DNA of 64,000 bases from Bacillota bacterium (GTDB taxonomy: Bacteria; Bacillota; Limnochordia; DTU087; JAAYGB01), in contig JAAYGB010000005.1 in the NCBI GenBank assembly GCA_012727955.1, positions 41,800-105,799 on the forward strand, read 5' to 3'. The number at the start of each line of letters is the position of its first letter. Position 1 is the first letter of the stretch. Shown here piece by piece: positions 17,503 through 46,919 of this stretch. The translations under genes and the position numbers were made by a program. The notes under the pieces were generated by a model. It ran no database searches, was not told where the DNA came from, and saw nothing but the letters and a program-made list of their open reading frames with translations.

Positions 17503-20500
17503 ATGAGACAGCAACTGGCGCCCCACCGGCTGTTGACCATCGTGGCAGCACTGGTGGTTCTCTACGGATTGGCCTTGATTAGCTTTCCTTACCTAGTGAC
17601 TCAGTTGCCGGTACAGAGTTGGATTCGGGACCGAGTCCTAGCGCGGTGGGAAGAAAGACTGGGTATTACTATGGACTTTGCCGAGATGAGACCGGCGGGA
17701 CTTGGCCAGCTGGAAATTACCGATGTAACTTTGACGGCCGATGGCGCAGCTTTGGCCCAAGTAGAGAAGATTGTGATCAAGGCAGACCTGGCCGGTCTGC
17801 TGTTGGCTTTGTGGCAACCCACGGAGGTAATTAGTTGGGTCAAGCTGATCTCACCAGAAGTGACGGTGGATCGAGCCGACTTGAGTGCCTGGCAGGTGAT
17901 GATGAATGAGTTTGTCTCCTCTGAGGCTCAGACGATGTTGACGGGAAACTTACCCTTTGCAGTGACCGTCAGTCACGGCACCTTGGTGATCAAGCAGGGA
18001 CAAGGGATCGAGGCTAGGCTCCATGGGATTAATGGTCGGGCTCACCGCCGCATAGTAATCTACGATGGAGCATTGGCGGTAGCGGCCTTGCCCGAGGAGA
18101 TCACCGGATTGGCCGGGACCGTGGCTTGGGGCCCAGGGGGTATTTCCGCTAATTTGCAGGCCAAGTTCCTGGGGGACTCCATCACCGTTGTGGGAAGGAC
18201 CAGGGGTATGAAGGGGCCCCGCCTGGAAGTTGATACCTTAACCGTTACCGGTCTGGGAGGGAAAGTCCAGGGAGTGGGACATGTTCAGTTACCGAGCCTA
18301 AGGACCAAGGGACCCCAATCCCTTGACTATCACTTCGCCCTGGTTTTCGATAATTTGCAGTTAAGTCCTTGGCTGGGGAAGCTGGTTACTGCATCAATCA
18401 CAGAAGCCCCCCCGATCCCCCTACCGACCTTTGAGGCCCTTTCCGGCACCCTGCTCATTGGCGGGGGTGGCGGTGCTCCGGAATTCATCGGAGATCTGGC
18501 TGTTACAGATCTTGCCTGGCAGGAGGGGAAGTTTGAGCACCTTCGAACGGGAATGGTCCTGACCTCTCAAGGCCTGCACATCGATTATTTCAGTTTGCAG
18601 GGTCCCAGCGGCAGCGTTGATCTCCAGGGCCGGATAGGATTGGATAGGGAACTGGATTTCATCGTCACCGTTGATGGGCTCGAAGTTGGAGATCTGCAGC
18701 TGGTTCCAGAGCTAGCGGGAGAGGTGGCTGCCGAAGCTCGGTTATCGGGGCAGTATCCGCTAGTAGAAGTGGAAGGGGTGGTCGTTGGTGATGGAATCTC
18801 CTATCGAGACCACCACCTGGGTGGGGTGGAAACGGGCTTTCGCTGGCGCGACGGGAACTTGGTGCTCAGCGATGGCAAGCTCCGCCTGGCTCAGGAACAA
18901 CTGGACTTTTCTGGACAGGTTACCCTGGCAGATCAAGGGGCCTTGGATCTTCGGATTACCGCCGACCAACTGGACCTCGGAGAGCTCGCCACCCTTGTCG
19001 GTCAAGGGATACCCGTCACCGGGCAACTGGCAGGGGGCCTTGAGATAAAGGGATGGATAGACAACTTGAGGGGAGAGGGCACCCTAACGGTTACTGGCCT
19101 TGGGGCCTATGGGGTGACCGCGGATCAGGTGACCACCGAGTTTCATTGGCAGGACCAGACGATGGTTCTGGATAGTTTGGTGGCTCAGGTGGGTGGAGGT
19201 AGGGTATCGGCCGATGGAGTCATCGACCAGACCCAGGGATGGAACCTGTTGGTTCAGGCCCAGGGCGTTGACCTGGAGTCCCTCAACCTAACTTTACGGC
19301 AGAGGCAAGGGCTCCAGGGACTCCTGCAGGGGCAGGGGAAAGTGACCGGCGACTGGACTCAGCCGCGGATTAAAGCAGAGGTCACCGTCATTGACGGGGC
19401 TGTCGGTGGATATCGCCTGGATGAGCTCAATGGGCAGGTGGCCTTCGCCCAGGGAATCATCCACCTCCCCTCCGTCAGTTTGCGGCTGGGAGCCGATGTG
19501 TACCGGCTATCGGGGGAAGTAGATTTGAGCCAGAATCCAAGGGATCCCGCCCTTGACTTGCAGTTGGATCTAGCCCAGGCTTCCCTGGAGGGTTTGACCT
19601 TGCTGTTTCCAGAGGCTAAAGAGCTGGCTGTGGCAGGACCCGTTGCTGGTTATGCCCAGGTGTGGGGGAGAATTTCCGATCCTAGCGGCGAGGCCCAGGT
19701 GATGGTGCGCGATGGCAGGATGCTGGATCAGCCCCTTGCCGCCACCGTTGATCTGGCGCTGCAGGATGGCATTCTTACCCTCAAGGAATCCCAGGTTCAC
19801 TGGGGCGAGGCGACCCTAACGGGACAGGGACAGATCGCGAATTGGCAAGAGCTGGCACTGAAGTTTCAGGCTCGGCGGATCCCTTTGGAGCAATTGCCTG
19901 GGAGTCTGTCGGTACCCGCTCATCTGTCCGGGCAAATCGATGGGGACTTGATGATAACGGGAACTCGAACTAGACCGAAGGTTAGGGGGACTATCTCCTT
20001 GGCCGAGGCACAGTACCAGGGGCATCGGTTTACCCAAGGCTTCGGTGAGTTCTTCCTCGATGGGGCTCGGATGCATTTAGACAGGCTCACCCTGCAGTCG
20101 GCCCACCATACCTTGACCGCTAGGGGACAGGTGGATCTGGCCTTACCGATCTTAACCAGCCTTGGTATCGCCGAGGTCCAACCCCGTTCTCGGGCCCATG
20201 TTGATCTGAGGTTGACCGTTGCGCCGAATCAGCAGTCGCCGAAATCCGTCAATGTCATGGGTGCAGTTTTCCAGCAGCCTCGCCTAATGAGTGATGTGGT
20301 GGTTCAGGGGACATGGCAGGATCCGAAACTCGAGGGACAGGTGGAGTTTTTCAGCGCTGAAGTAGTCCATGGGAGTTTGCCGGAGCCAGCTAGGGGTGTC
20401 AAGCTGACAGTTGAACTGGCTGGGCACGAGGTTATCCTTCGCCGACTGGACTCTCAGATGGGTCGAGGCAAAGTCTTTGGATCCGGTGTTGTCTTCCTCG

Positions 20501-21429
20501 ATGGCCTTGTACCTGGGAAGTATGACCTAACCTTCCAGGTGGACGGAGTCAGCTTGGCCGGTGATTTTGGCTCTGGTCGATTCTTTGGCGAGTTAGGATT
20601 GGCGGGAACCTCCGCTGTTCCCGTGGTTCGGGGCAGCCTGCGGGTTGACGATGGCAGGGTAAACTTGAAACTTCCCCAGTCCCAAGGGGGATTGCCCAGG
20701 AACGTACACCTGGACATTCACCTGAGGGCAAAGGAGGATGTATTGGTCCAAGGCTTTGGGCTGGACATGGCGGTGCACGGAGATACCCGTCTCCAGGGAA
20801 CTTTGCAGGAGCCACAGCTGGATGGTACGGTAAAGCTAAGTCGAGGCAGCTTCAACTATCTTGGTACCCGATTCCAGCTCACCTCCGGTAGTTTGGTCTT
20901 TGCTCCCATCAATGGCTACATCCCTTGGGTAGATTTGCGGGCGGAGACCAATCTCACTGCCGGAGAAGTAATTCTCACCATGAGGGGCAGGGCTGATCAA
21001 CTGGACATCACCCTCCGATCGGATCAGGATCTATCCCAACAGGAGTTGATGGCCCAACTAGGGTGGCCTGAGAAAATGGGACAGGCCTTTGATGGTAGGC
21101 TGTGGGCCAATCTCGATTCCGAGGTGATGAGGCTGGTGGAGGGTGAATTTGTCAATCAGTTCCTGGGGGATTTGACCCGTTCCTTCAGGACCGCCCTGAG
21201 TCTGGACAAACTGGAGATTGAGCCGAGCTTCATCGATAAGAATCTTCGCTTTGAGGTGGGCAAGTATGTGGACGATCGGGTGTTTGTCACCTACTCCCGA
21301 AAGGTCTCTGATTCCTCGGAGCAGGAGATTGGAGTGGAGTACCGTCTTAACCCCAATGTGGTTTTCGCCACCACTTTGGACGGTAACGGTGAGAAGTGGT
21401 TTGGATTTCGGGGCCAGTTCCGCTTCTAA
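17503..21429 (+). CDS. tamB: translocation and assembly module protein TamB (AsmA-like, DUF490 C-terminus)
   Basis: 1308 aa; N-terminal membrane anchor; long repetitive beta-rich 'GxV/GxL' body; C-terminal 'FEVGKYVDDRVFVTYSRKV...GVEYRLNPNVVFATT' DUF490-type domain; directly upstream of bamA, as in diderm Firmicute OM clusters. Confidence 0.8.
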   Translation: MRQQLAPHRLLTIVAALVVLYGLALISFPYLVTQLPVQSWIRDRVLARWEERLGITMDFAEMRPAGLGQLEITDVTLTADGAALAQVEKIVIKADLAGLLLALWQPTEVISWVKLISPEVTVDRADLSAWQVMMNEFVSSEAQTMLTGNLPFAVTVSHGTLVIKQGQGIEARLHGINGRAHRRIVIYDGALAVAALPEEITGLAGTVAWGPGGISANLQAKFLGDSITVVGRTRGMKGPRLEVDTLTVTGLGGKVQGVGHVQLPSLRTKGPQSLDYHFALVFDNLQLSPWLGKLVTASITEAPPIPLPTFEALSGTLLIGGGGGAPEFIGDLAVTDLAWQEGKFEHLRTGMVLTSQGLHIDYFSLQGPSGSVDLQGRIGLDRELDFIVTVDGLEVGDLQLVPELAGEVAAEARLSGQYPLVEVEGVVVGDGISYRDHHLGGVETGFRWRDGNLVLSDGKLRLAQEQLDFSGQVTLADQGALDLRITADQLDLGELATLVGQGIPVTGQLAGGLEIKGWIDNLRGEGTLTVTGLGAYGVTADQVTTEFHWQDQTMVLDSLVAQVGGGRVSADGVIDQTQGWNLLVQAQGVDLESLNLTLRQRQGLQGLLQGQGKVTGDWTQPRIKAEVTVIDGAVGGYRLDELNGQVAFAQGIIHLPSVSLRLGADVYRLSGEVDLSQNPRDPALDLQLDLAQASLEGLTLLFPEAKELAVAGPVAGYAQVWGRISDPSGEAQVMVRDGRMLDQPLAATVDLALQDGILTLKESQVHWGEATLTGQGQIANWQELALKFQARRIPLEQLPGSLSVPAHLSGQIDGDLMITGTRTRPKVRGTISLAEAQYQGHRFTQGFGEFFLDGARMHLDRLTLQSAHHTLTARGQVDLALPILTSLGIAEVQPRSRAHVDLRLTVAPNQQSPKSVNVMGAVFQQPRLMSDVVVQGTWQDPKLEGQVEFFSAEVVHGSLPEPARGVKLTVELAGHEVILRRLDSQMGRGKVFGSGVVFLDGLVPGKYDLTFQVDGVSLAGDFGSGRFFGELGLAGTSAVPVVRGSLRVDDGRVNLKLPQSQGGLPRNVHLDIHLRAKEDVLVQGFGLDMAVHGDTRLQGTLQEPQLDGTVKLSRGSFNYLGTRFQLTSGSLVFAPINGYIPWVDLRAETNLTAGEVILTMRGRADQLDITLRSDQDLSQQELMAQLGWPEKMGQAFDGRLWANLDSEVMRLVEGEFVNQFLGDLTRSFRTALSLDKLEIEPSFIDKNLRFEVGKYVDDRVFVTYSRKVSDSSEQEIGVEYRLNPNVVFATTLDGNGEKWFGFRGQFRF

Positions 21430-21586
21430 TTTTCAGTGGAGATCTCTGCCAGTACTGTCAAGATGTATGGTTATTTACACCAACTACATGACAACAGACA
21501 GCAGGGAAGTGCCTCTAGGAGATCGAATTGAGTCTTAAGGAAGCTGAGCTTGGACAACTTTGCTAACGGGGAAGCAGGGAGGTTTT

Positions 21587-23269
21587 ATGGTGACGATTAC
21601 AGTACGACCGGCGTTGCTTGTCGGAACTTTGCTCTCATTATTACTTGTTTTTTCTCTTACCTTATCTGGTACTGTGTATGCTGCGGAACCCATCGTCAAG
21701 GCCATTGTCTTTCAAGGCAACCAGCAGCTGGATGATGTCGAGTTGATGCAGTATATTACCGCAACGAAGCTGGGCGAACCCCTGGATGAAGAGGCGGTGG
21801 AAGCCGACCGCAAGGCGTTGTTTGACTCCGGGTATTTTTGGAGTGTGCAGCCCGCGGAGGTCAGCTTTGTTCCCGGCGGTGTGCACTTGATTTTCAAAGT
21901 GGTGGAAAACCCCGTGGTGGAACGGGTAACCATCGAGACCACTGCTTTGCCGGTGGAAGAATTCCTTGGTGCCCTGTACACTCAGCCCGGTAAAGTTCTC
22001 AACGTCAATGGCCTGCGGGATGACCTGAATCAAGTGATTCCTGAGAAGGCGATGACCGATTATGGCATTCCCGTTCGAGTGAGTGATGCCAGTGTCTCCC
22101 CGGAGACGGGAGAGGTAAATATCGTTCTCGAAGCCCAGATTGTGTCGGAAATCAAGATCTCTGGTAACGAGAAGACCAATGACCATGTCATTACCAGGGA
22201 ATTGGGGATTAAGCCCGGCGATGTTCTCAATCTCAACACCATCAACCAGGGTCTGCATCGGGTTCTGATGCTAGGATACTTTGATGAAATCAGTCGAGAG
22301 ATCTTGCCCGGTGAAAAGGACGATGAGGTGATTCTGCATATTCGAGTGGCGGAACGCAAGACCGCGGTGTTCACCGGTGGTGTGGGCTACAGCTCCCATG
22401 AAGGGCTGATCGGATATGTAGATGTTGCCGATGAAAACTTCCGAGGAAATGGCCAACGGGTCAACTTCCGCTGGGAGTTCGGGAAGAATCGCACTTCCTA
22501 CGATATTGGTTTCTATGAGCCCTACCTGGGCGAAGATGGGAGAAACTCCATCGGTGCCAATATCTATCGAACCACACGAGAGTACAAGCACCAAAATCCA
22601 GAGATAGGAATCTATGAAGCCAAGTCTACCGGGGCCAGTGTCACCTTGGGCCGTCGGTTGACGCCAAACACTCGGGGATACTTGGTGCCCAAGATGGAGA
22701 AAGTATCGGACTGGGAGGGCGAATACACCACTAGGAGTTTGCGTCTGACCACGGTAACCGATACCTCGAACCACCCCTTCTTCCCGACTACCGGTAACAA
22801 GCTGCGCTTGTCCGCAGAATTTGCCGGTGGCCTATTGGGAGGAGACAGTCAGTTTAGTGACTACCAGGCGGATTACAGCAAGTACTTCCCTCTGGGACGG
22901 CGAAACCAGACCCTGGCCTTCCGGCTCTCCGGTGGTGTCTTGACTGGTGACAATATTCCAGACCCAGAACGTTACCGTGTGGGTGGGTCTGAGTCCCTGC
23001 GAGGATACAAATATGGGGAGTTTGAGGGAGACCGGAAGCTGGTGCTGAACAGTGAGTACCGGTTCCAGATTAAGGACGCCTTCCATGGTGTACTCTTTGC
23101 CGACATCGGTAATGCTTGGGATTCAGGAGAATCCATCAGTATGAAGGATCTGAACGTAGGATATGGTGCCGGATTGCGCATTGACACCCCCTTAGGGGTA
23201 CTGCGATTTGACTATGGTTTTGGCGATGACGGCGGCAACTTCTACTTCAGCATCGGTCAAATGTTCTAG
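21587..23269 (+). CDS. bamA: outer membrane protein assembly factor BamA (Omp85)
   Basis: ATG 21587 after a GGGAGG RBS; signal peptide; POTRA-like repeats; C-terminal 16-strand-barrel signatures ('RGYKYGEFEGDRK', 'DIGNAWD') ending in ...GQMF. Confidence 0.88.
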   Translation: MVTITVRPALLVGTLLSLLLVFSLTLSGTVYAAEPIVKAIVFQGNQQLDDVELMQYITATKLGEPLDEEAVEADRKALFDSGYFWSVQPAEVSFVPGGVHLIFKVVENPVVERVTIETTALPVEEFLGALYTQPGKVLNVNGLRDDLNQVIPEKAMTDYGIPVRVSDASVSPETGEVNIVLEAQIVSEIKISGNEKTNDHVITRELGIKPGDVLNLNTINQGLHRVLMLGYFDEISREILPGEKDDEVILHIRVAERKTAVFTGGVGYSSHEGLIGYVDVADENFRGNGQRVNFRWEFGKNRTSYDIGFYEPYLGEDGRNSIGANIYRTTREYKHQNPEIGIYEAKSTGASVTLGRRLTPNTRGYLVPKMEKVSDWEGEYTTRSLRLTTVTDTSNHPFFPTTGNKLRLSAEFAGGLLGGDSQFSDYQADYSKYFPLGRRNQTLAFRLSGGVLTGDNIPDPERYRVGGSESLRGYKYGEFEGDRKLVLNSEYRFQIKDAFHGVLFADIGNAWDSGESISMKDLNVGYGAGLRIDTPLGVLRFDYGFGDDGGNFYFSIGQMF

Positions 23270-23287
23270 AATGTAAATGTAAGCATT

Positions 23288-23445: not shown

Positions 23446-23895
23446 GTGATGCAGCGTACCTGGTTGTACGGGGTGGCACTGGTGGTAGCAGCTCTGGGAC
23501 TGCTCGCGGCGATCACGATGCTGTCCGGTGATGTGGTTGGGGTGGTAGATTCCCAACGGATAATGGAGGAATTTGTCGTTGCCAGGGTACAGAAATCCTT
23601 GGAGGAGGAAGCCGAGAGGCTGCAGTCGGAACTGGATCAAGCCATTGCCGAGACCGCCGAGCTACCCGTGGAGGAGCGAGTCCCTAAGGTGGATGAACTA
23701 AAGGAAGAGTATCAACGGCGCCTGGACGAGTACAAGACCCAGTTGGTGGAACCAAAGATTCAGCAGGTTAAGACTGTCATTAAAGAGGTGGCAAGCGCTC
23801 GCCGGGTGGATATGGTCATCGACAATGCCAGTCAGTTGGTTTTGTACGGCGGAGTTGATCTGACCGATGAGGTACTGGAAGAGCTTGGTAAGTGA
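23446..23895 (+). CDS. skp: OmpH/Skp-like periplasmic chaperone
   Basis: 149 aa; signal/TM then coiled coil; C-term 'ARRVDMVIDNASQLVLYGGVDLTDEVLEEL' is the typical Skp/OmpH ending; follows bamA. Confidence 0.75.
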   Translation: MMQRTWLYGVALVVAALGLLAAITMLSGDVVGVVDSQRIMEEFVVARVQKSLEEEAERLQSELDQAIAETAELPVEERVPKVDELKEEYQRRLDEYKTQLVEPKIQQVKTVIKEVASARRVDMVIDNASQLVLYGGVDLTDEVLEELGK

Positions 23896-23929
23896 AGTGC
23901 CAGGGCCGGATAGGGGGGGAGTGAGGAAG

Positions 23930-25045
23930 ATGCCAAGAACTTATCGGAGCTTTGCCGTGATTTCATTCCTGATTTTGGGCGCTGCCCTCACAGTCGCAGC
24001 AGTGATCTGTATCGAACTCGGGATCGGGGCAGCTGCTTCCCTGGGATATGTGGATATGGAGCGGGCGATGACGCAACACCCCCTCTATTCAGAGCTGGTG
24101 GAGCTGCAGAAGCAGATCCAAGAGGAAGAACAGCGTTGGGATCGCTATGTCGGGCAGGTTCTGGCGACCTCAGACCCCCAGGCCTATCAGGAGTGGGTGG
24201 CGACCCTGTATGGCTCTGGAGTATCGACCCTGCAGGAGGAGAATCATCGGCAGATTGCCCAGCGCCAAGAGAAGATTGAAGCCCAGTTGGCGCAAGAGCT
24301 AGAGAGGCTGCAGCAAGAGGCGCTAACCAGCTGGGAGCAGACCCAGGAGAATCATCGGCAGCTCTTTGCCCAGAAGCAAGAGGAGTTAGCCACTGCCATC
24401 GAAGCAGAGCTTAACGCTGAGGCAGAGCTGGTCCGGAAGTCTTACCAGCGGGAGATCCTCAACCTCCAGGTGGAACTGCTGCTGCAAAACAGCCTAACCT
24501 CCCAGGAGCGATTGGAAAAGACAGCGCAGCTGGAAGAACTTCAGGATGAGATGCAGGATAGACTCCAGGAATTGAGCGGGGCCTACACCGCTCTGTTGGA
24601 GGATAGGATCGCGGAGCTGGCCCAGCAGATGGAAAGGGATCTCAAGTCCCTGGAAGACGAGGCCAACAACAGGCTAGAGGCACAGATTAAAGAGGCTGAA
24701 GCTCTGGCGCAACAGGAGCTAGATCGCTACCTGCGTGCTAAGGAGGAAAGCATGGTCGCTGCATTGACCACCCGCGAGGAAACTTTGGCGCGGATGCAAG
24801 GCCCCTTACTGGACACCCTGATCCAGCAGGGCCTGGTGTCGGAGCAGAGTCGGCAGATGCAAAGCTTCATCGAAGGGGAATTGCAGACCAAGGCCCAGCG
24901 TTTGTTAGAGACAATCCACGGAGACATTCAGGCCGCTGCAACCCAAGTTGCCCAGAGGCAAAGGCTGCAGGTGGTTTTGACCGACAGTGAGTTTTCCGAG
25001 GACCTGATTGACGTAACTGACAGTGTGATTGATGCAATGCGATAA
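23930..25045 (+). CDS. extended OmpH/Skp-like coiled-coil protein
   Basis: 371 aa from ATG 23930; N-terminal TM; ~300 aa Q/E/L-rich coiled coil; OmpH-like C-terminus 'LQVVLTDSEFSEDLIDVTDSVIDAM'. Confidence 0.55.
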   Translation: MPRTYRSFAVISFLILGAALTVAAVICIELGIGAAASLGYVDMERAMTQHPLYSELVELQKQIQEEEQRWDRYVGQVLATSDPQAYQEWVATLYGSGVSTLQEENHRQIAQRQEKIEAQLAQELERLQQEALTSWEQTQENHRQLFAQKQEELATAIEAELNAEAELVRKSYQREILNLQVELLLQNSLTSQERLEKTAQLEELQDEMQDRLQELSGAYTALLEDRIAELAQQMERDLKSLEDEANNRLEAQIKEAEALAQQELDRYLRAKEESMVAALTTREETLARMQGPLLDTLIQQGLVSEQSRQMQSFIEGELQTKAQRLLETIHGDIQAAATQVAQRQRLQVVLTDSEFSEDLIDVTDSVIDAMR

Positions 25046-25060: not shown

Positions 25061-25120
25061 CCTGAAGTTCCCTGCTGGCGAGAGGATTCTATGTCCAGCA
25101 GCGGAACTTCAGGTGGTTTT
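25061..25120. terminator. bidirectional terminator hairpin between convergent genes
   Basis: ~18-bp stem cctgaagttccctgctgg / ccagcagcggaacttcagg; T-run on the + strand side; minus-strand gene 25120..25749 ends immediately adjacent. Confidence 0.7.
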
Positions 25121-27848: not shown

Positions 27849-27866
27849 AAGGAAAGGGTGAAGGAC

Positions 27867-37979: not shown

Positions 37980-38016
37980 GGGAGCTTATGCGGGATTTTG
38001 GGATGGAGGTGAAGCA

Positions 38017-38745: not shown

Positions 38746-38749
38746 TCGC

Positions 38750-38896: not shown

Positions 38897-39730
38897 TTGC
38901 AGTCACAACGGACGCTGGCGAAATCCATCAGTTATGAAGGCCTTGGGCTTCATACTGGACGAACTATTCGGATGTCAATTCACCCGGCATCTCCCGACTC
39001 TGGCGTGGTGTTTCGGCGGGTAGATTTGCCCGAGAGGCTCGAAATTCCGGCTAGGCTGGAGAACGTAGTTGATACCAGGTTGAACACTACTTTGGGTATT
39101 GGTACCGTCAAGGTTATGACGGTGGAACATCTTCTGGCTAGTCTGTCAGGGATGGGCGTCGACAACGCTATTGTCGAGTTAGATGGCGGTGAAGTTCCCG
39201 TCGGGGATGGCAGCGCCGAGTTGTTTTGTCGCTTGATCCAAGAGGCGGGAGTCGTCGATCAGCCACAGGCTCGAGTCTATCGGGGTTTATCATCGCCGGT
39301 CAGTGTCTCCGACAAGGGCCGGTATATGGTTGCCTTACCTGCCGATGAGTTCAGGATATCCTTTACCTTTGTTACCGATCATCCCGTAATCGGTACCCAG
39401 TACGCCGATTATGCAATTACCGAGGAGGTATTTCGGGAGCAGCTGGCTGCGGCCCGAACCTTTGCCTTTGCTCATCAAGTCGAAGAGATGCGGCGACAGG
39501 GAAGGGCTCTGGGGGGAAGTTTGGATCTGGCTGTGGTGGTGGGGGACGAAGGATACGTGAACGAACTGAGATTCCCCGACGAGATTGTCCGGCATAAGAT
39601 TCTGGATATTGTGGGTGACCTGGCTTTGCTGGGGCCGATGAAGATGCATATCATTGCCATCAAGTCCGGTCATCAGCTGGATGCCTGGTTGGCACAGCGA
39701 ATTTCCGAAGTAGCAGTTGGATGGAATTGA
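38897..39730 (+). CDS. lpxC: UDP-3-O-acyl-N-acetylglucosamine deacetylase LpxC
   Basis: 277 aa; 'QRTLAKSISYEGLGLHTGRTIRMSIHPASPDSGVVFRRVDL' and 'TVEHLLASLSGMGVDNAIVELDGGEVPVGDGSA' are canonical LpxC blocks; HKxLD-like 'VRHKILDIVGDL'. Confidence 0.92.
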   Translation: MQSQRTLAKSISYEGLGLHTGRTIRMSIHPASPDSGVVFRRVDLPERLEIPARLENVVDTRLNTTLGIGTVKVMTVEHLLASLSGMGVDNAIVELDGGEVPVGDGSAELFCRLIQEAGVVDQPQARVYRGLSSPVSVSDKGRYMVALPADEFRISFTFVTDHPVIGTQYADYAITEEVFREQLAAARTFAFAHQVEEMRRQGRALGGSLDLAVVVGDEGYVNELRFPDEIVRHKILDIVGDLALLGPMKMHIIAIKSGHQLDAWLAQRISEVAVGWN

Positions 39731-39819
39731 CAGGAATAGAGGAGGCGACCTTGTCTCAATAATGTATGTGAGGGATGTTTTTCCTCAGAGTACAAATATT
39801 TACTAAGGAGGTCAACTCT

Positions 39820-40803
39820 TTGCGCGCAATTCTGCCTTTAGCCGGGATCGGTAGCCGATTGCGACCTCATACCCACACCCTACCTAAATCCTTGGTACCG
39901 GTAGCGGGCAAACCTATCTTGGGACATATTCTCGACCGGTTGATTCCCGTTGGAGTAAGTGAAGTGGTCTTGATCGTCGGTCAGATGGGTGACATGATCG
40001 TAGACTACGTCAGTGAGAACTATAATTTTGTCGTCCGCGTGGTCAATCAGGAGGAGAGACGGGGTCTTGGTCATGCCGTCTACCTATCTCGAGAACATGT
40101 CGACCCGGCGGAGCCGGTGCTGATTGTTTTGGGCGACACCATCGTCGAAGCTGATTTGGCAGCGGTGGTCAGAAGTCCCCACAGCGTCTTGGGGGTACGG
40201 GAGGTGGACAATCCCCAAAGTTTCGGCGTTGTCTCTTTGGAAGGAGATCGTATCGCTGACCTGGTGGAGAAGCCAGCCAACCCGCCGTCGAACCTAGCAG
40301 TGGTGGGGGTCTATTACATCAAGAACACTGCTCTGTTGCTTAATTGTCTGGAATACATAATCGATCAGGGAATTACCTTGAAGGGCGAATTTCAGCTCAC
40401 CGATGCCCTGCGCCGGATGATTAAACTGGGCGAACCCATGGGTGTTTTCCCAGTGGAAAGCTGGTTTGACTGTGGTAATCCCGAGAGCCTGTTGGCCACC
40501 AATCGATATCTCTTGGACCGGGATGGAGCCGTTAGTGCTCCCCTGCAAAATACGGTGGTAATTCCCCCAGTACATATTGCCAGAACTGCTAGGGTAGCCA
40601 ACAGTGTCGTCGGCCCCTATGTGTCGGTAGCTGATCATGCCGTGGTGGAGAACTGCCTGATCAGGGACAGCATCCTCAACGAAGGCGCAGTTGTGCGGGA
40701 CATTACCTTAGATGGGTCTTTAATCGGACATAACGCTGTCGTCACTGGTCGGTACACTAAGCTGAATATCGGGGACTCTTCGGAGATCATTTCCGGTTCC
40801 TAG
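39820..40803 (+). CDS. sugar-1-phosphate nucleotidyltransferase with C-terminal hexapeptide (LbH) domain
   Basis: TTG 39820 after an AAGGAGGT RBS; 'AILPLAGIGSRLRPHTHTLPKSLVPVAGKPIL' is the NTP_transferase G-rich loop; 'LVEKP' motif; C-terminal hexapeptide repeats. Confidence 0.75.
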   Translation: MRAILPLAGIGSRLRPHTHTLPKSLVPVAGKPILGHILDRLIPVGVSEVVLIVGQMGDMIVDYVSENYNFVVRVVNQEERRGLGHAVYLSREHVDPAEPVLIVLGDTIVEADLAAVVRSPHSVLGVREVDNPQSFGVVSLEGDRIADLVEKPANPPSNLAVVGVYYIKNTALLLNCLEYIIDQGITLKGEFQLTDALRRMIKLGEPMGVFPVESWFDCGNPESLLATNRYLLDRDGAVSAPLQNTVVIPPVHIARTARVANSVVGPYVSVADHAVVENCLIRDSILNEGAVVRDITLDGSLIGHNAVVTGRYTKLNIGDSSEIISGS

Positions 40804-40872
40804 GGGGCAGAGTCCGGGAAACCGACGAGAAAAAACAGGATGGGATGGCAGTTGTTATTCCCATCCATTAGC

Positions 40873-40901
40873 TTGACACGTCTACGGGCGCAGGGTACAA
40901 T
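40873..40901 (+). promoter_or_regulatory. consensus sigma-70/sigma-A promoter (TTGACA-17-TACAAT) upstream of fabZ-lpxA
   Basis: ttgaca 40873-40878, 17-nt spacer, tacaat 40896-40901; fabZ ATG at 40966. Confidence 0.6.
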
Positions 40902-40965
40902 GGTAGCAGCCTTGCTTCCAGGTACTAATTTGTGCCCGAACAAATTGGTAAAGGAAGATTTTCAT

Positions 40966-41409
40966 ATGTTAGATATTCTTGAAATCCAAAACAGAATTCC
41001 CCATCGCTTTCCCTTTTTGATGGTGGATCGAGTCCTGGAGTTGGAGCCAGGTATTCGGGCAGTTGGATTGAAGAACTTGACCATCAACGAGCAATTCTTC
41101 TCTGGTCATTATCCCCAGCGCCCTATTATGCCAGGGGTTCTGATGCTTGAGGCTATGGCTCAAGTCGGGGGATTGGCGGTGATCAAGGATGGAGTGGCCA
41201 GCGGTCAGGTTCCTTTGTTAACCGGGATCGACAAAGCTCGCTTTCGGCGAGTCGTGGTTCCCGGCGACCAACTTCGCATTGAAGTTGAAGTCACTCAGTT
41301 GCGCAGGTCCTTGGCCAAGTGCAAGGGCTATTGTTATGTAGAAGATGAGCTGGCTGCCGAAGCGGATTTGATGTTTGTGGTGGCCCCTGCCGACAAGGTC
41401 GGACAGTAA
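40966..41409 (+). CDS. fabZ: 3-hydroxyacyl-ACP dehydratase FabZ
   Basis: ATG 40966 (RBS aaaggaag); 'MLDILEIQNRIPHRFPFLMVDRVLELEPG...FFSGHYPQRPIMPGVLMLEAMAQVGG' is the hot-dog FabZ signature. Confidence 0.92.
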   Translation: MLDILEIQNRIPHRFPFLMVDRVLELEPGIRAVGLKNLTINEQFFSGHYPQRPIMPGVLMLEAMAQVGGLAVIKDGVASGQVPLLTGIDKARFRRVVVPGDQLRIEVEVTQLRRSLAKCKGYCYVEDELAAEADLMFVVAPADKVGQ

Positions 41410-41476
41410 CGGTCACCTGTACAAACTTAAGCTGACTTTGGGGATTGTGCCATGGGCAGCCGGAAGGGGAACAGGA

Positions 41477-42295
41477 ATGAGCACAAAGGAAAAGCCGGGA
41501 AATAATGTCATCCCTTTGCGTCAGAAGATACACGAGACTGCGATTGTTCATCCCAATGCAGTGATTGGTTCCGGCGTTACTATCGGTCCCTATTCGATTA
41601 TTGGTGAAAATGTAGAGATCGGTGACGGGACAGAGATCGGAGCCCACGTGGTTATAGAGGGATGGACGACGATTGGTAAGAATAATAAAATTTATACCGG
41701 TGCAATTATAGGAAATGAGCCCCAGGATCTGAAGTTCAAAGGGGAAAAAAGCTATCTCTTCATTGGAGATAACAACATCATTCGGGAGTATGCTACCATC
41801 AGCCGAGGTACCGAAGGTGGTGGAGGCGAAACTCGAATTGGCAACAGTTGCTTGATCATGTCTTACGTTCACGTGGCCCATGATTGTCAGATCGGGAATA
41901 ATGTCATCATTGCTCATGGCACTGGAATAGCCGGCCACGTTACCGTTGAGGACAGTGCTGTTTTTGGTGGGTTAGTTGGAGTCCATCAGTTCACCAAAGT
42001 CGGGCGGATGGCGATGATCGGCGCCCATACCATGGTAACCAAAGATGTGCCTCCATACCTTCTCGTCGATGGAAATCCCGCTAAAGCCTACGGTATCAAT
42101 ATAGTTGGCTTGAGACGCAATGGATTAAGTCCCGAGGTTAGAGCCGAAATTAAGCGCGCCTATAAGATTTTGTACCGTTCTAATTTGACTATATCCGAGG
42201 CCATCGAACAAATGGAGCAGGAGTTGGCCGGTTCTCCAGAAATCGATCATTTCCTCCGCTTCTTGAGATCCGTGGATCGTGGTATTTGTCGTTAG
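41477..42295 (+). CDS. lpxA: acyl-ACP--UDP-N-acetylglucosamine O-acyltransferase LpxA
   Basis: ATG 41477 (RBS ggaagggga); 'IHETAIVHPNAVIGSGVTIGPYSIIGENVEIGDGTEIGAHVVI' hexapeptide repeats with LpxA-type C-terminal helical domain 'GLRRNGLSPEVRAEIKRAYKILYRS'. Confidence 0.9.
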   Translation: MSTKEKPGNNVIPLRQKIHETAIVHPNAVIGSGVTIGPYSIIGENVEIGDGTEIGAHVVIEGWTTIGKNNKIYTGAIIGNEPQDLKFKGEKSYLFIGDNNIIREYATISRGTEGGGGETRIGNSCLIMSYVHVAHDCQIGNNVIIAHGTGIAGHVTVEDSAVFGGLVGVHQFTKVGRMAMIGAHTMVTKDVPPYLLVDGNPAKAYGINIVGLRRNGLSPEVRAEIKRAYKILYRSNLTISEAIEQMEQELAGSPEIDHFLRFLRSVDRGICR

Positions 42296-42313: not shown

Positions 42314-42928
42314 ATGACCCAGTCAAAAAGCGTGTTCCTAAGGGCAAAGGAGTGCGCCTCCCTGTCGTTGCCTGAAACGCTGTACAAGATCCGGGGGATC
42401 CTGCCTTTGCCTCTACTGTTACTCAGCATCCTGTGGTCTCGTCCGAATCCCCAGTCCTTGACCTGGGGTTTGGTCCTGGTTGCAGGGGGAGAACTAGTTC
42501 GCCTCTGGGTAGCGGGGTTTCTCGGTGGACAGCCAATAGAGCAACGGGACGGGTTGCCCTTAGTGGAGCATGGTCCCTATAGTTTGATGCGGCATCCCCG
42601 CCAGATTGGGAATTTCCTCATTGGGATGGGATTAAGTGTCGCTGCAAACTGGTGGATCGGATACCTGCTCTATTTCGGCTATTGCCTCCTTGTGATTCGG
42701 GTATTGATTCCCGTGGAAGAGGATGTCTTGGTGGCCAGCTATGGTGATGAGTATCGCCAATATTGTGCTAGGGTACATCGCTTTCGTCCGAAGGTTAGCA
42801 AGGCCATCCTTAGCCGAGAGGGTTTTGCCGGGAAAGATGCCTTTGCCAGCGAGCGGTCGATGCTGTTCTTCATCGCTGCTATTGGGGCATGTTTTGCTGC
42901 AAAATGTTTGTTTCTGGTAACGGGATAG
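42314..42928 (+). CDS. integral-membrane SAM-dependent methyltransferase of the ICMT/PEMT family
   Basis: 204 aa; 4-5 TM; 'GPYSLMRHPRQIGNF' (G-x-Y-xxx-RHP-x-Y-x-G-like) and the C-terminal 'EEDVLVASYGDEYRQYCARVHRFRP' (EE..L...FG.EY..Y...V.R) motifs; nested between lpxA and lpxI. Confidence 0.6.
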   Translation: MTQSKSVFLRAKECASLSLPETLYKIRGILPLPLLLLSILWSRPNPQSLTWGLVLVAGGELVRLWVAGFLGGQPIEQRDGLPLVEHGPYSLMRHPRQIGNFLIGMGLSVAANWWIGYLLYFGYCLLVIRVLIPVEEDVLVASYGDEYRQYCARVHRFRPKVSKAILSREGFAGKDAFASERSMLFFIAAIGACFAAKCLFLVTG

Positions 42929-43012: not shown

Positions 43013-43840
43013 ATGAAAATAGGTTTGCTGGCCGGTGAAGGGTTACTACCCTTTGCCTTTGCCGAGAATGCGAAAGCTATGGGGCACAGTGTGGTGGCGA
43101 TTCAGATCTTTGCTGCCAGGCCGGAACTTGCCTCCCACGTGGACAAGTTGCTGCAGATCCCGGTGGGGCAGTGGGGAAAGATTCTCAGTACCCTGCAGCA
43201 AGAGGCTGTTGATCGGGTGTATATGGTAGGGAAGGTTCCCAAGGGTCTGATGTACACCTCCATGGAATTTGATGCTCGTTTTCGGCAAATCATGGGGTCC
43301 CTGGCAGCCCGCAACGACGACGCTGTGGTGTTGGCCTTTATCGCGGACTTGGCTGCCCATGGACTTGAGGTTGGCTCCCAACTGGATATTCTGGAACCCT
43401 TGTTGGTTCGTCCTGGCGTCTTAACCGACCAGGCCCCTACTCCAGAGCAGTGGCAGGACATTGGATTTGGTTTTCCCATGGCTAAGGGCATCGGGCGCCT
43501 GGACATTGGACAGACGGTGGTGGTCAAGCATGCCGCGGTGGTGGCCGCTGAAGCCGTGGAGGGAACCGATGAGGCCATCCTGCGGGGAGGAGCTCTGGCC
43601 GGCCCCGGTACAGTAGTGGTGAAAGTGGCCAAACCCCATCAGGATCTTCGCTTTGATATCCCTACGGTGGGGGAGAGAACCCTGCAGTATATGGTTCGGG
43701 CCCAAGCCTCGGTACTGGCGGTGGAGGCCGGTGCCGTATTGATTGTTGAGGAGCCGCAGTTTGTTCGCCAGGCCAACGAACTAGGTATCGCCATCGTAGG
43801 CGTTTCCGATCAGGATGGGCAGGCAGGTGCTGACCAATGA
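43013..43840 (+). CDS. lpxI: UDP-2,3-diacylglucosamine hydrolase LpxI (DUF1009)
   Basis: 275 aa; N-term 'MKIGLLAGEGLLPFAFAENAKAMGHSVVAIQIF' and C-term 'DIGQTVVVKHAAVVAAEAVEGTDEAILRG...VVVKVAKPHQDLRFDIPTVGERT' match the LpxI family; overlaps lpxB start by 4 nt. Confidence 0.82.
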   Translation: MKIGLLAGEGLLPFAFAENAKAMGHSVVAIQIFAARPELASHVDKLLQIPVGQWGKILSTLQQEAVDRVYMVGKVPKGLMYTSMEFDARFRQIMGSLAARNDDAVVLAFIADLAAHGLEVGSQLDILEPLLVRPGVLTDQAPTPEQWQDIGFGFPMAKGIGRLDIGQTVVVKHAAVVAAEAVEGTDEAILRGGALAGPGTVVVKVAKPHQDLRFDIPTVGERTLQYMVRAQASVLAVEAGAVLIVEEPQFVRQANELGIAIVGVSDQDGQAGADQ

Positions 43841-44991
43841 AGGGCTACAAGGTGATGATCGTTGCGGGAGAAGCCTCGGGAGATCTCCACGGTTCCTACT
43901 TGGTCCAGAGCCTGAGGCGGCAAAATCCCGATATCCAGTTCTTCGGGATGGGTGGTCGCTTGATGCAAGAGGCCGGCGTTGAGCTGCTCTTTGATCCCAC
44001 CCAAATGTCCACCATTGGATTTGTGGAGGCGCTGAAAAGTTATCGGGTGCTAAAACGGGTTTTGTCCCGGCTGCGGGATGCCTTAGTGGAACGACGGCCC
44101 GATGTCCTAGTACTCATCGATTTTGGCGGCTTCAACATGCGCCTGGGTCCCATGGCCAAGGCAGCTAACATTCCTGTGGTCTACTACATTAGCCCAGCGG
44201 CATGGGCCTATGCCGAAGGCCGGGCCAAGAAGGTAGCCGCCTTTGCCGACAAAGTGGTGTCCATCTTTCCCTTTGAGTACGATGTATACAAGAAGGCTGG
44301 GGCCAACGTGGAGTTCGTCGGCCATCCCCTGTTGGATATCGTGCAGGTGGATGGCAGTAAAGCTGAGCTTTGCTCCCGACTGGACCTAGATCCGGAAAAT
44401 CCCATTATTGGACTTTTGCCGGGAAGCAGAGAGCAGGAGCTAAAGTCACTGTTTCCCAAGATGCTGGCTGCTGCCAGACTCATTGCCCAGGAGATTGCCG
44501 ATGTCCAATTCGTGGTTCCCCTGGCGTCCACGGTGTCTGACGTGGCGGCAGCCATCCTCGATGACTTGGATGCAAGGGATCTGAACCTAAGGATAGTGAC
44601 CGGTGAGGCCTATAGTGTGATGGCAGTCAGCGACTTGGCGGTGATCGCCTGCGGAACGGCTACCTTGGAGGCCGCGATCCTCGACACTCCCCAAGTGGCG
44701 ATTTACCAGGTGGCGCCGGTGACGGCCTTTATTGTACGGCGGGTGGTGCGCATCTCCCACTTTGCTCTGCCGAATATCATCATGGAGAAAGAGATTATTC
44801 CTGAGTTGATTCAGGAAGAGGTAACTACTGACAACATCGCTGGGACGGTACTGGAGCTGTGGAATCAGCCCGACCAAATAGCACAGATCCGTCGGGATTA
44901 TCAGGCGATGCGGACCAGACTGGGCAGTTCCGGAGCGGTGGACAGAGCTGCCGCTGCGGTACTACAGGCAGCCCGGCAAAGCTCACGGTAA
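43837..44991 (+). CDS. lpxB: lipid-A-disaccharide synthase LpxB
   Basis: 384 aa; 'KVMIVAGEASGDLHGSYLVQSL...IQFFGMGGRLMQEAGVELLFD' is the classical LpxB N-terminus; GT-B fold length. Confidence 0.92.
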   Translation: MKGYKVMIVAGEASGDLHGSYLVQSLRRQNPDIQFFGMGGRLMQEAGVELLFDPTQMSTIGFVEALKSYRVLKRVLSRLRDALVERRPDVLVLIDFGGFNMRLGPMAKAANIPVVYYISPAAWAYAEGRAKKVAAFADKVVSIFPFEYDVYKKAGANVEFVGHPLLDIVQVDGSKAELCSRLDLDPENPIIGLLPGSREQELKSLFPKMLAAARLIAQEIADVQFVVPLASTVSDVAAAILDDLDARDLNLRIVTGEAYSVMAVSDLAVIACGTATLEAAILDTPQVAIYQVAPVTAFIVRRVVRISHFALPNIIMEKEIIPELIQEEVTTDNIAGTVLELWNQPDQIAQIRRDYQAMRTRLGSSGAVDRAAAAVLQAARQSSR

Positions 44992-45117
44992 CTTGCTGCG
45001 AAGGACTGGTATGCCGGGATCTGGCTCTAGTGGTAGGGTTTGCGTAGAGGTATCCATGGGAAAATAGCGAATTTTGTTGTAGGGACAGGTATTCAGTTTG
45101 ATGAGGGAGAGTTTGTT

Positions 45118-45837
45118 TTGACCATCGTAGCCCAGGATCTGGTGAAGTCCTATCGCGGTCGAAGAGTTGTAGATCGAGTCTGTCTCGAGGTAGCTCGAGG
45201 TGAAGTAGTAGGCTTACTGGGGCCAAACGGGGCAGGGAAGACTACTACTTTTTACATGATCGTGGGATTAGAAAGGCCGGACTCTGGGAGCGTCCAGATC
45301 GACGGACAGGAGATTACCCCCTTACCGATGTATCGGCGCGCCCGGTTGGGAATTGGTTATCTGCCCCAGGAAGCATCGATTTTTCGCAAGTTGACGGTGA
45401 CGGAGAATATCTTAGCGATTTTAGAAGTTATGGGGTTGGATAAAAGACAACGACAGCAGCGCCTGGAGGAGCTGTTGGAGGAATTTGACCTGGGGCATGT
45501 CAGGAATCAGCAGGGCGTGATGTTGTCCGGGGGAGAGCGGCGTCGAGTGGAAATCGCTCGGGCTCTGGCAACAAACCCGGCTTTCATCCTGTTGGATGAA
45601 CCCTTCGCCGGGGTCGACCCCATCGCGGTGGCCGATATCCAGACGATAGTGGCTTACCTGAAGAAGCGGGGTTTGGGGGTATTGATCACCGATCATAACG
45701 TGAGAGAGACCCTGGCCATCACCGATCGAGCCTATATTATGCATCAGGGCAAGATCCTAGTTTCTGGCTCCGCCGAGGAAATCGCCACCAACGAGACTGC
45801 CCGCAAGTTTTACCTGGGAGAGCGGTTTAGCCTATGA
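45118..45837 (+). CDS. lptB: LPS export ABC transporter ATP-binding protein LptB
   Basis: TTG 45118 after a GGAG RBS (the longer ORF from 45040 is unlikely); Walker A 'GPNGAGKTT', '[15 protein letters not shown]', LptB-type C-terminal '[33 protein letters not shown]'. Confidence 0.85.
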
Positions 45838-46919
45838 GAATTCTAGATAAATATATAGCCAAGGAGACCATTTTGCCCGTCTTGTTTGGGATTGCCGCCT
45901 TCACCAGTATCTTCGTTGGCACCGAATTGATCGATATGGCTAAGTTGGTGGTCCGATATGGGGCACCGCTGAGTAAGGCGGTTTTGGTTTTCCTGTATAA
46001 TCTGCCGCAGATCTTTACCTACACCTTTCCGATGTCGGTACTTCTGGCAACGCTGTTGTCGATGAGTCGGCTGTCTTCTACCAGTGAGATTGTGGCAATG
46101 CAGGCCGGTGGCGTCAGCTTTCGGCGGATTATTGCACCGGTGTTGGTGGTGGCAGTAATCGTCACGGGAATGAGTTTTTTTATTAGTGAGAAGGTGGCCC
46201 CTAGGGCCAATGAACGCAGCGCCCTGTTGATGCTGGAGATTCGGGGTGGAAGTATCCCCACGGTGACCAGAAACGTTATTCTGCAGACGCACGAGCGGGG
46301 AATAATGAATTGGTTCCTGTATGCCGCCCGCTTTGACGCTAAGACTCAAATCATGCATGATGTGACGATTGTATCCCTAGACAACGGCAAGCCCGTTGAG
46401 AACACCTATGCGGAGCAGATTGTGTGGGATGAGACAGGATGGTATATGGAGAATGGAGTGACCAATCGCTTCAATGCCGATGGCCAGGTGGTGACGGTGA
46501 ACTTCGCTGGAGCCCGCCAGCCCGTGGATATCGGTCAGAAGCCGCAGGACATCGTTCGGGCCCAAAAGGACCCCGAAGAGATGAATATTCGGGAATTGTC
46601 GCAGCATATCAATATCCTAGCCAGTCAAGGCCGCAATGTCCGCGAGTTGCAGGTGAAGTGGCACTCGAAGTTAGCCATGCCCTTTGCTAGCCTGATCTTT
46701 GCTTTGGTGGGAGCTCCTTTGGGAATTCAGCCCCATAGATCGGCGACCTCCATTGGATTTGGGCTGTCAATTGTAGTTATTTTTATCTATTACGTGATTA
46801 TGACGGCGGGAGAGGCTCTAGCCCAAGGGGGATATCTGCCCCCGGTTGTCGGTGGTTGGATCGCCAATATTTTCTTTGTTGTTCTGGGATTGGGGTTGTT
46901 GTTTCGTTCTTCTCGGTGA
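45834..46919 (+). CDS. lptG: LPS export ABC permease LptF/LptG family (YjgP/YjgQ)
   Basis: 361 aa; '[27 protein letters not shown]' is a typical LptF/G start; 3+3 TM with a periplasmic domain; translationally coupled to lptB. Confidence 0.82.

Follow-up and report, generated by a model that had tools for sequence, protein, structure and literature searches.

An outer-membrane biogenesis cluster and a conserved, unnamed ABC pair in the chromosome of an uncultured Limnochordia bacterium

The outer-membrane locus

The stretch of DNA analysed here, called the window throughout, comprises 64,000 nucleotides from a Bacillota bacterium (contig JAAYGB010000005.1, positions 41,800 to 105,799), and it very probably carries the outer-membrane (OM) biogenesis cluster of a two-membraned Firmicute of the Limnochordia, inherited with the chromosome and lying beside sporulation and flagellar genes. 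By homology, LpxA, LpxC, LpxD, LpxI and LpxB, together with FabZ, would be the five enzymes that open lipid A synthesis; LptB, the LptF/LptG-type permeases, LptC, LptA and the LptD homologue would form the bridge on which lipopolysaccharide (LPS) crosses from the inner membrane to the outer; BamA, Skp and TamB would fold barrel proteins into the OM; and OmpM-type SLH-barrel proteins would fasten the OM onto the cell wall. An earlier note on this DNA, made by reading the sequence without database searches, had seen in it an endospore-type Firmicute with a genuine LPS outer membrane. The core of that reading is supported, and we infer from the genes that the cell makes LPS and that it sporulates.

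Almost all genes of the window are on the + strand, and the open reading frames (ORFs) listed earlier are present where they had been placed. The features of the locus, with lengths in amino acids (aa) and transmembrane segments abbreviated as TM, are as follows.

17503..21429, + strand: tamB, 1308 aa (C-terminal Pfam TamB match of 143.5 bits; NCBIfam TamB 70.5 bits, under its cut-off)
21560..23269, + strand: bamA, Omp85 barrel and POTRA (Pfam Omp85 176.3 bits, POTRA 102.6 bits)
23446..23895, + strand: skp/ompH copy 1 (Pfam OmpH 54.7 bits; N-terminal signal or anchor)
23867..25045, + strand: long coiled-coil protein, possible skp copy 2 (OmpH match in residues 250-391 only)
25120..25749, - strand: DUF3298/PdaC-like gene, not an OM gene (Pfam DUF3298 72.2 bits)
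25923..27218, + strand: GH4 alpha-galactosidase, not an OM gene (Pfam Glyco_hydro_4 and 4C; PRK15076 695 bits, cut-off 486)
27374..27808, + strand: skp/ompH copy 3 (Pfam OmpH 48.5 bits)
27846..28910, + strand: lpxD (NCBIfam TIGR01853 360.3 bits, cut-off 242.5)
29072..29719, + strand: small YjbH-domain OM protein candidate (Pfam YjbH 42.4 bits; signal peptide)
29795..30613, + strand: secreted protein, 272 aa, no assigned family, possible small barrel (no Pfam match)
30710..31795, + strand: lptF-type LPS export permease (Pfam LptF_LptG 288.3 bits)
31900..34179, + strand: lptD homologue, 759 aa, N-terminal beta-jellyroll and large beta-barrel (AlphaFold2, AF2, and Foldseek)
34211..34912, + strand: probable lptC, between lptD and lptA (one N-terminal TM)
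34872..35615, + strand: lptA (Pfam LptD_N/OstA 44.5 bits, cut-off 20.4; signal peptide)
35853..37979, + strand: 708-aa membrane protein of an undescribed family (TM1, an extracytoplasmic domain of ~525 aa that includes a coiled coil, then three TMs and an EAA-like loop at the C-terminus)
37957..38745, + strand: ABC ATPase, partner of the 708-aa protein (Pfam ABC_tran 139.5 bits)
38897..39730, + strand: lpxC (NCBIfam TIGR00325 259.5 bits, cut-off 187.25)
39775..40803, + strand: sugar-1-phosphate nucleotidyltransferase with a hexapeptide tail (Pfam NTP_transferase 107.7 bits)
40840..41409, + strand: fabZ (NCBIfam PRK00006 180.6 bits, cut-off 113)
41375..42295, + strand: lpxA (NCBIfam PRK05289 377.7 bits, cut-off 226)
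42314..42928, + strand: PEMT/ICMT-family membrane methyltransferase (Pfam PEMT 36.2 bits)
43013..43840, + strand: lpxI (Pfam LpxI_N 107.6 bits, LpxI_C 158.5 bits)
43837..44991, + strand: lpxB (NCBIfam TIGR00215 318.4 bits, cut-off 190.25)
45040..45837, + strand: lptB (NCBIfam TIGR04406 380.6 bits, cut-off 240)
45834..46919, + strand: lptG-type LPS export permease (Pfam LptF_LptG 318.6 bits; NCBIfam LptG 238.3 bits, cut-off 240)
46949..48442, + strand: DUF3084 membrane-anchored coiled-coil protein (Pfam DUF3084 107.5 bits)
48477..49289, + strand: secreted protein without a barrel, its N-terminus SLH-like but degenerate (Pfam SLH E 0.056; signal peptide; motif seen by eye)
49580..51340, + strand: OmpM-type tether with SLH, coiled coil and a C-terminal barrel ending in Phe (Pfam SLH 42.4 bits)
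51430..51861, + strand: COG0816/RuvX-like small protein (Pfam RuvX E 0.0083, weak)
53936..55432, + strand: second OmpM-like protein, with a degenerate SLH and a barrel whose last residue is Phe (Pfam Porin_4 22.8 bits, under its cut-off)

The matches to Pfam TamB, Omp85/POTRA and OmpH make tamB-bamA-skp one block (17503-23895). The tamB and bamA calls of the earlier note were borne out, with TamB, Omp85 and POTRA above their Pfam cut-offs, and the best NCBIfam match of bamA is BamA (254.8 bits, cut-off 297). The genes that the note enumerated for the cluster are present, but it had not listed the two genes unrelated to the envelope (DUF3298 and GH4) that are inserted between the second and the third skp gene. 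Since the GH4 gene is equally placed, with 91% identity, in the related locus L007 (such numbers denote related loci), the insertion (25120-27218) is older than the species.

The genes lpxA, lpxB, lpxC, lpxD and fabZ all lie within 27.8-45.0 kb, in the same locus as the genes for OM protein assembly, and the early set of the Raetz pathway (LpxA, LpxC, LpxD, LpxI and LpxB) is present in full. NCBIfam equivalogs above cut-off identified lpxD, lpxC, fabZ, lpxA and lpxB, and lpxI matched in both of its Pfam domains, while the sugar nucleotidyltransferase and the membrane methyltransferase announced among them were recovered as Pfam NTP_transferase and PEMT matches. For the nucleotidyltransferase the best NCBIfam match is rmlA_long (218.7 bits, below cut-off); an RmlA/GlmU-like gene also lies between lpxC and fabZ in L007, L008, L009, L010, L013, L014 and L017, and in other relatives a similar gene follows an MsbA-type exporter. 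The methyltransferase between lpxA and lpxI gives a weak match to LmtA_Leptospira (34.8 bits, cut-off 325), and its position is kept in L007, L008, L010, L013, L014 and L017. LmtA of Leptospira is a lipid A 1-phosphate methyltransferase, and the presence of a similar protein among the lpx genes may hint at a methylated lipid A.

A different gene content was observed in loci L018-L030 and L035, from biogas metagenome-assembled genomes (MAGs). These keep bamA, skp, the YjbH-like OM protein, lptF, the LptD homologue and the ABC pair, as well as fabZ, a true lpxB, lptB and DUF3084; no lpxC, lpxA, lpxD or lpxI was found within 10 kb on either side, and no lptG after lptB. The missing genes may lie in other parts of these genomes; alternatively, these lineages may have a reduced lipid A synthesis.

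As to the Lpt machine, the calls of lptF, lptA, lptB and lptG were confirmed by two Pfam LptF_LptG matches, LptD_N and NCBIfam LptB. With an identity of only 28% between them, the two permeases are true paralogues. The lptD call, also the NCBI product name of the protein, has weak support from sequence (LptD_N 20.9 bits; NCBIfam LptD E 1.5e-12) and strong support from the predicted structure: in the AF2 model, built from an alignment of 22 relatives (pLDDT 85.5), an N-terminal jellyroll leads into a barrel with roughly 26-30 strand elements. The top 37 Foldseek matches of this model in the PDB are all LptD (best 4q35_A, E 1.4e-23, TM ~0.5), at 9-13% sequence identity to solved LptD structures. 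The protein contains exactly two cysteines, Cys154 and Cys706, one per domain and kept in 22/22 and 21/22 relatives, which we take to be placed comparably to the disulfide between N-domain and barrel of Escherichia coli LptD. The window shares with the E. coli machine (LptB2FGC-LptA-LptDE) the parts list and the LptD fold, and differs in showing no LptE match in general scans; moreover, E. coli lptD sits with surA, whereas lptD of the window comes directly after lptF, which it often overlaps in relatives.

In two loci, L004 (5868-9239) and L005 (5087-8467), from one Halanaerobiaceae MAG and one Bacillota MAG, LptF and the LptD homologue form one ORF of ~1100 aa, which would join an inner-membrane permease and an OM barrel on one chain. 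This could be a real fusion or an assembly frameshift; as a general feature it was rejected, since it occurs in only 2/34 loci and the genes are separate, adjacent or overlapping in the 32 others. Of the two small beta-barrel candidates proposed earlier, the YjbH-domain gene was upheld by its Pfam match and adjoins lpxD or lptF in more than 30 loci; the 272-aa one shows only a weak PorV/PorQ match (25.7 bits, cut-off 90), with relatives only in L007, L009, L013, L015 and L016.

The gene right after lptG encodes DUF3084, as is the case after lptG or lptB in many loci, and not an OmpM-like SLH tether as had been described; such a tether is nevertheless present at 49580-51340. Its SLH and barrel mark it as the tether that stands in for Lpp or Pal in this kind of cluster (no genome-wide search was made for these two), and its SLH matches the V. 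parvula OmpM structures 8bys, 8bz2 and 8bym (E 1.6e-17, for 8bys, to 4e-16), while the SLH region of the second OmpM-like protein matches 8bz2 weakly (E 0.058). In more than 20 loci the COG0816-like gene, at 36-50% identity, follows DUF3084 or OmpM. At least 8 related loci encode, downstream of this gene and with 35-41% identity, a counterpart of the 321-aa secreted protein of 55463-56428, which has no family match and may be another unnamed member of the cluster. Further on, and unrelated to the cluster, a small DUF1540 protein (59847-60095, 51.5 bits) follows a 721-aa thioredoxin-like DUF255 protein.

Chromosomal setting and alternative readings

The ATP synthase, proposed in the earlier note for placing the lineage, points to the Limnochordia: the best named relatives of AtpD, taken as a vertical marker, are from a Limnochordales bacterium, a Limnochordia bacterium and Limnochorda (78-82% identity), and metagenome proteins without a taxon name reach 85-89%. 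The nearest related locus, L007, belongs to 'Limnochordia bacterium 15dZY3.bin.114' and is collinear from the GH4 gene to lptG, with 55-91% protein identity. Judged by these matches, the contig is that of an uncultured Limnochordia MAG. The lineage, suspected to be poorly sampled, is indeed uncultured but not rare, as many biogas-reactor MAGs carry related loci. A curated survey counts the Limnochordia as both sporulating and diderm (PMC7924749).

Upstream of the envelope genes the window carries these features.

Upstream of the OM cluster: atpAGDC (confirmed by profile search)
5431..6300, + strand: membrane-anchored M23/LytM protein, SpoIIQ-like by position (Pfam Peptidase_M23 71.9 bits; one N-terminal TM)
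6329..6751, + strand: spoIIID, mother-cell sporulation regulator (NCBIfam TIGR02844 134.9 bits, cut-off 111.5; Pfam SpoIIID 133.7 bits)
Upstream part: Mbl and two FlgF/G genes, in the order atp-spoIIID-mbl-flgFG (profile search)
9676..12867, + strand: flgA, flgH for the L-ring, flgI for the P-ring and a flgJ-like rod-binding gene; flagellar parts of the diderm type (Pfam ChapFlgA 89.7, FlgH 173, FlgI 444.3 and Rod-binding 66.5 bits)

Thus spoIIID does lie next to the OM cluster, its product passing the SpoIIID equivalog, and the synteny of atp, spoIIID, mbl and flagellar genes was found as described, with atpAGDC, Mbl and two FlgF/G genes. FlgH and FlgI rings are needed only where an outer membrane exists; the OM theme of the window begins before 17503 with flgA, flgH and flgI, which had been missed and which we count in the cluster. 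Directly upstream of tamB, at 13738-17326, two unusual proteins are encoded: one of 520 aa, which combines AMIN and phosphodiester glycosidase (NAGPA) domains, and a membrane-anchored one of 683 aa, with only a partial match to the SpoIVB S55 peptidase.

The window is part of a 108,662-bp MAG contig, and its encoded proteins are NLV90966-NLV91006. GC content is even along it (0.50-0.59), GC skew is positive in 32/32 windows of 2 kb, and the sporulation part and the OM parts are similar in third-position GC (GC3) and correlate at 0.91-0.96 in tetranucleotide use. In an ENA assembly from another sample (ERZ2647963), NODE_147 (107,930 bp) holds both ends of the window (AtpA and MFS) at equal spacing, with 99.92% and 99.72% identity over 11.6 kb at either end, and the shared collinear arrangement spans 62 kb. 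Neither tRNA or tmRNA genes nor Rfam families were detected in the window. The 10 kb upstream of it contain prfA, prmC, sua5-type, rpiB, upp, GT4, wecB-type and atpF/H genes, and the ~2.6 kb downstream a polysaccharide flippase-type gene.

Several points weigh against the reading of the window as a full LPS outer-membrane locus of a sporulating cell. Neither the window nor its flanks (10 kb upstream, ~2.6 kb downstream) yielded lpxK, waaA, kdsA-D, a late acyltransferase or an msbA-type flippase, so that the Kdo2-lipid A pathway is shown only up to the early lpx steps in the stretch examined and, with the late genes missing from it, a complete pathway is not demonstrated for the genome; the earlier note had recorded lpxK, waaA, kds and msbA as missing from the window, but its expectation of them nearby was not borne out over these flanks. 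Of the three skp/ompH genes claimed, copies 1 and 3 are clear, but the second (23867..25045, whose true start is probably downstream of 23867) scores 24.2 bits, under the OmpH cut-off of 32.4. The lptC call fits by position and TM anchor, but its NCBIfam score of 30.5 bits is under the cut-off of 38, and no LptE match appeared in Pfam/NCBIfam scans of the window ORFs, which included no dedicated LptE search. In the model of the 708-aa protein the domain arrangement is uncertain (pTM 0.45). As for sporulation, spoIIID is the sole firm marker in the window, while Spo0A, the sporulation sigma factors and spoIIIA fall outside it: the SpoIIQ-like gene does encode an M23 peptidase, but it and the SpoIVB-like protein match far under the NCBIfam cut-offs (for SpoIIQ, its best match, 56.6 bits against 250). 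Finally, terminator-like counts are only modestly above those of shuffled sequence, and promoter-like sites number 13 against 12.2 in shuffled sequence at 17-37 kb and 22 against 13.7 (sd 3.5) at 37-57 kb. With counts so near the shuffled level, operon structure is a guess; guided by the strongest terminator-like intergenic hairpins, those that follow bamA, skp3, the 272-aa gene, the ABC ATPase and the methyltransferase, our guess at the transcription units is tamB-bamA; skp; lpxD with the small OM proteins; lptF-lptD-lptC-lptA with the ABC pair; lpxC to the methyltransferase; and lpxI to DUF3084.

It could be the case that an OM exists whose outer-leaflet lipid is not classical Kdo2-lipid A LPS, the late steps being absent genome-wide. 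The lack of lpxK, waaA, kdsA-D and msbA from the ~77 kb examined would fit this, as would the loci L018-L030 and L035, with no lpxC, lpxA, lpxD or lpxI matches near their bamA-lpt genes, and the methyltransferase with its LmtA-like match. However, all five early lpx genes are intact and scored above equivalog cut-offs, and the same cluster in the relatives L006 and L046 has kdsA-D beside it, with genes for a lipid A acyltransferase and for an exporter of the MsbA type; in this genome such late genes may lie elsewhere. We consider the atypical lipid improbable. Recent capture of the whole cluster by a single-membraned Firmicute from a classical Gram-negative phylum, which the packing of the genes in one locus would make easy, is highly improbable: composition shows no break, a search of the window for tRNA genes gave none (its minor ORFs were not screened for mobile-element genes), some 60 related species have the same syntenic locus with graded identity, and the locus shows Firmicute-specific features (OmpM rather than Lpp or Pal, DUF3084, the COG0816-like gene, and tamB-bamA-skp by the lpx genes). 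A chimeric contig in which 17-47 kb came from a Gram-negative and were mis-joined to 0-17 kb from a Firmicute, which a metagenome-assembled source and the seeming contradiction of sporulation beside LPS genes might suggest at first sight, is so unlikely that we regard it as excluded, because the second assembly has equal order and spacing at 99.7-99.9% identity and GC, GC skew, tetranucleotide use and GC3 are uniform, and the diderm-type flgAHI lie already within the 'Firmicute' part while AtpD and the OM genes alike point to the Limnochordia. An OM biogenesis cluster resident in a Limnochordia chromosome is thus the reading that we retain.

The ABC pair

The two genes at 35853-38745, between lptA and lpxC, had been described as an FtsX/FtsE-type ABC pair, a label that did not hold. 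The 708-aa protein gives no FtsX (PF02687) match at E <=0.01, nor any other Pfam or NCBIfam match at that threshold, and the ATPase is closer to GlnQ (240 bits), ProV (235) and TcyN (227) than to FtsE (185.2 bits, cut-off 264.85), all of these NCBIfam scores being below cut-off. Hydropathy places the TM segments of the 708-aa protein at 8-35, 562-581, 609-635 and 640-661, in agreement with the AF2 secondary structure, and in the AF2 model (pLDDT 75) long helices, a beta-rich module and ferredoxin-like modules of the alpha/beta type make up the extracytoplasmic part. The C-terminal 'GEALGLTYVQIMRNIVIPESRPGLL', on a short cytoplasmic tail, aligns with the EAA coupling loop of MetI (E ~0.05), and the C-terminus also gives a weak BPD_transp_1 match (E 0.022, profile positions 15-113 of 184). 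The EAA-like motif is kept in 28/28 aligned family members, all of which end ~20 residues after the loop. A search of PDB sequences with the family profile returned only coiled-coil noise and a weak MetI match.

The family is small, with 46 matches in 5.8 billion proteins and 243 representatives (E <=0.001) in 1.84 billion; with so few relatives, its profile does not reach the very large FtsX/MacB families. An identity as FtsX was therefore rejected at the sequence level, on the missing profile match and the small family. In 62/62 testable loci the ATPase gene comes immediately after that of the 708-aa homologue. LpxB or LptB is found no more than 8 kb from the pair in 44/45, LpxC within 2.5 kb in 37/52, and an LptD homologue upstream of it in 32/49, the linkage to lpt/lpx genes holding down to 26-35% identity. 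The pair is locked to lptF-lptD-lptC-lptA and lpxC in the Limnochordia, in at least one Halanaerobiaceae MAG and in at least two Sporomusaceae genomes. Its carriers are nearly all uncultured Bacillota, including 'Ca. Darwinibacter acetoxidans' and a Hydrogenispora MAG; others are one Halanaerobiaceae MAG, Anaerospora hongkongensis DSM 15969 (Negativicutes) and Sporomusaceae UBA1887. One further locus, L042 (JBLNCC010000089.1), with lpxD, a YjbH-like gene, lptF, the LptD homologue, the ABC pair and lpxC-lpxB, is labelled 'Betaproteobacteria bacterium', and here the label or the binning is probably wrong. Limited literature searches found no description of the pair.

Our best guess, held with low confidence, is that the 708-aa protein and the ATPase would work as an ATP-driven envelope machine acting on a lipid or another OM component through a periplasmic coiled-coil stalk. 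The membrane part resembles a cut-down importer-type permease, with three TMs and an EAA-like loop at the extreme C-terminus, on which ferredoxin-like 'porter' modules and the stalk appear to be grafted. The stalk comes in two main length classes, 85-91 residues in 18/28 aligned members and 189-206 in nine, with 147 in one. The pair could move or sense an OM lipid, and one possibility, by analogy, is Mla-like phospholipid/LPS homeostasis, since Mla has been reported absent from Halanaerobiales and most Limnochordia (PMC10665443). A role as a substitute for MsbA was considered and rejected: L046 has, besides the ABC pair, a standard MsbA-type exporter (ABC_membrane and ABC_tran) downstream of lpxB, and the pair is therefore not simply a flippase.

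The main rival holds that the pair is not a transporter and that, as in FtsEX, ATP-driven motion of the coiled coil switches a cell-wall hydrolase or a tether. Its layout of 4 TMs with a large domain between TM1 and TM2 and the long coiled coil built into the protein are consistent with this, and type VII ABC systems (MacB, LolCDE, FtsEX) likewise combine four TMs and a large extracytoplasmic domain placed between the first two of these with modules of the ferredoxin-like 'porter' type and a separate ATPase. On the other hand, FtsX is not matched even at E 0.01, and MacB_PCD leaves no signal either; the ATPase scores higher with GlnQ, ProV and PhnC-type models than with FtsE; a loop resembling the EAA loop of importers lies at the C-terminus; and the linked genes are lpt and lpx, with no hydrolase gene among them. 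We hold this mode of action to be unlikely, though a serious contender. Distinctly less probable is a plain importer of nutrients that carries a fused extracytoplasmic binding domain, in the manner of GlnPQ, and stands in the cluster by chance. GlnQ is the best match of the ATPase, and the EAA-like loop aligns weakly with the type I importer permeases BPD_transp_1 and MetI. However, the two TMs that normally come after that loop are missing in 28/28 aligned members, a 525-aa extracytoplasmic insert is present that consists of ferredoxin-like modules and coiled coil, Pfam and NCBIfam detected no solute-binding-protein domain in it, no binding protein accompanies the pair, and chance does not explain a linkage to lpt/lpx genes that extends down to 26-35% identity in 62/62 loci. 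The mycobacterial MmpL4 and MmpL5, which are RND exporters of lipids and siderophores with a periplasmic coiled coil, and the lipid-transport permeases MlaE/YrbE give global TM-scores of ~0.1 with the 708-aa protein, so that the likeness is modular and not one of shared fold; MmpL proteins are, moreover, proton-driven and have 12 TMs, and no MCE protein is linked to the pair. Returning to the ATP-driven machine, it is possible, if tentative, that the pair represents a hitherto undescribed ABC machine, lineage-restricted and belonging to the envelope of diderm Firmicutes.

Relation to described loci and significance

The OM locus of diderm Firmicutes was reportedly extended to the Limnochordia by Taib et al. 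in 2020. Antunes et al. (2016; PMC5007114) had described a single OM locus in Negativicutes and Halanaerobiales, with flgAHI, OmpM and the conserved unknowns DUF3084 (COG4372), COG0816 and COG0750, and found no LptD and one LptF/G in diderm Firmicutes. The Limnochordia have been presented as a third LPS-diderm Firmicute clade, with the cluster as a unique diderm-Firmicute feature (bioRxiv 10.1101/2021.05.31.446380). The hallmark arrangement claimed in the earlier note is confirmed in both gene order and content: the window shares with the locus of 2016 tamB-bamA-skp, lpxD, lpxC-fabZ-lpxA-lpxI-lpxB and lptA/B/F/G with a probable lptC, as well as the OmpM copies, flgA-flgH-flgI and the Firmicute sporulation background. 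Among the conserved unknowns, DUF3084 is clear, the COG0816/RuvX-like protein is weak by score and conserved in position across loci, and no COG0750 protease was seen in the window. The differences are that the window has two divergent LptF/G paralogues where one was found, and, placed between lptF and lptC, an LptD homologue of full size where none was; that it adds the 708-aa protein with its ATPase and the GH4/DUF3298 insertion; and that msbA, waaA, lpxK and the kds genes are not in its locus. In Negativicutes sonA/sonB flank bamA, whereas they are absent from the window, in which the gap between bamA and skp1 is 177 bp.

A recent comparison is offered by Acetonema longum, a sporulating diderm Firmicute, for which an atypical 16-strand LptD, a second OstA-like protein of 729 aa, a homodimeric LptF/G, no LptE and a 213-aa YjbH-domain protein predicted as a 12-strand OM protein have been described (PMC13018214, 2026). 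It resembles the window in BamA, TamB, Skp, OmpM and the small YjbH-domain protein. Its assigned LptD has 16 strands against the ~26-30 strand elements of our LptD model, and its LptF/G is a homodimer against the two permease paralogues of the window. By analogy, the LptD homologue of the window may correspond to the second, 729-aa OstA-like protein of A. longum.

Since the Limnochordia are already known to have an LPS outer membrane and the cluster, this kind of locus is one already described and the window is one more Limnochordia example, which by itself changes nothing. Two-membraned Firmicutes are, however, the main model for the loss of the outer membrane in Gram-positives, with the single-locus cluster as their signature, and the window shows a canonical-size LptD homologue right after lptF together with two LptF/G paralogues, and that the late lipid A/Kdo genes can be detached from the cluster. 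The modest interest of the locus rests mainly on this LptD/LptFG arrangement and on the ABC pair, which is conserved and unnamed in the lpt-lpx block of ~60 species and, as its carrier Anaerospora hongkongensis DSM 15969 is cultured, is experimentally approachable.

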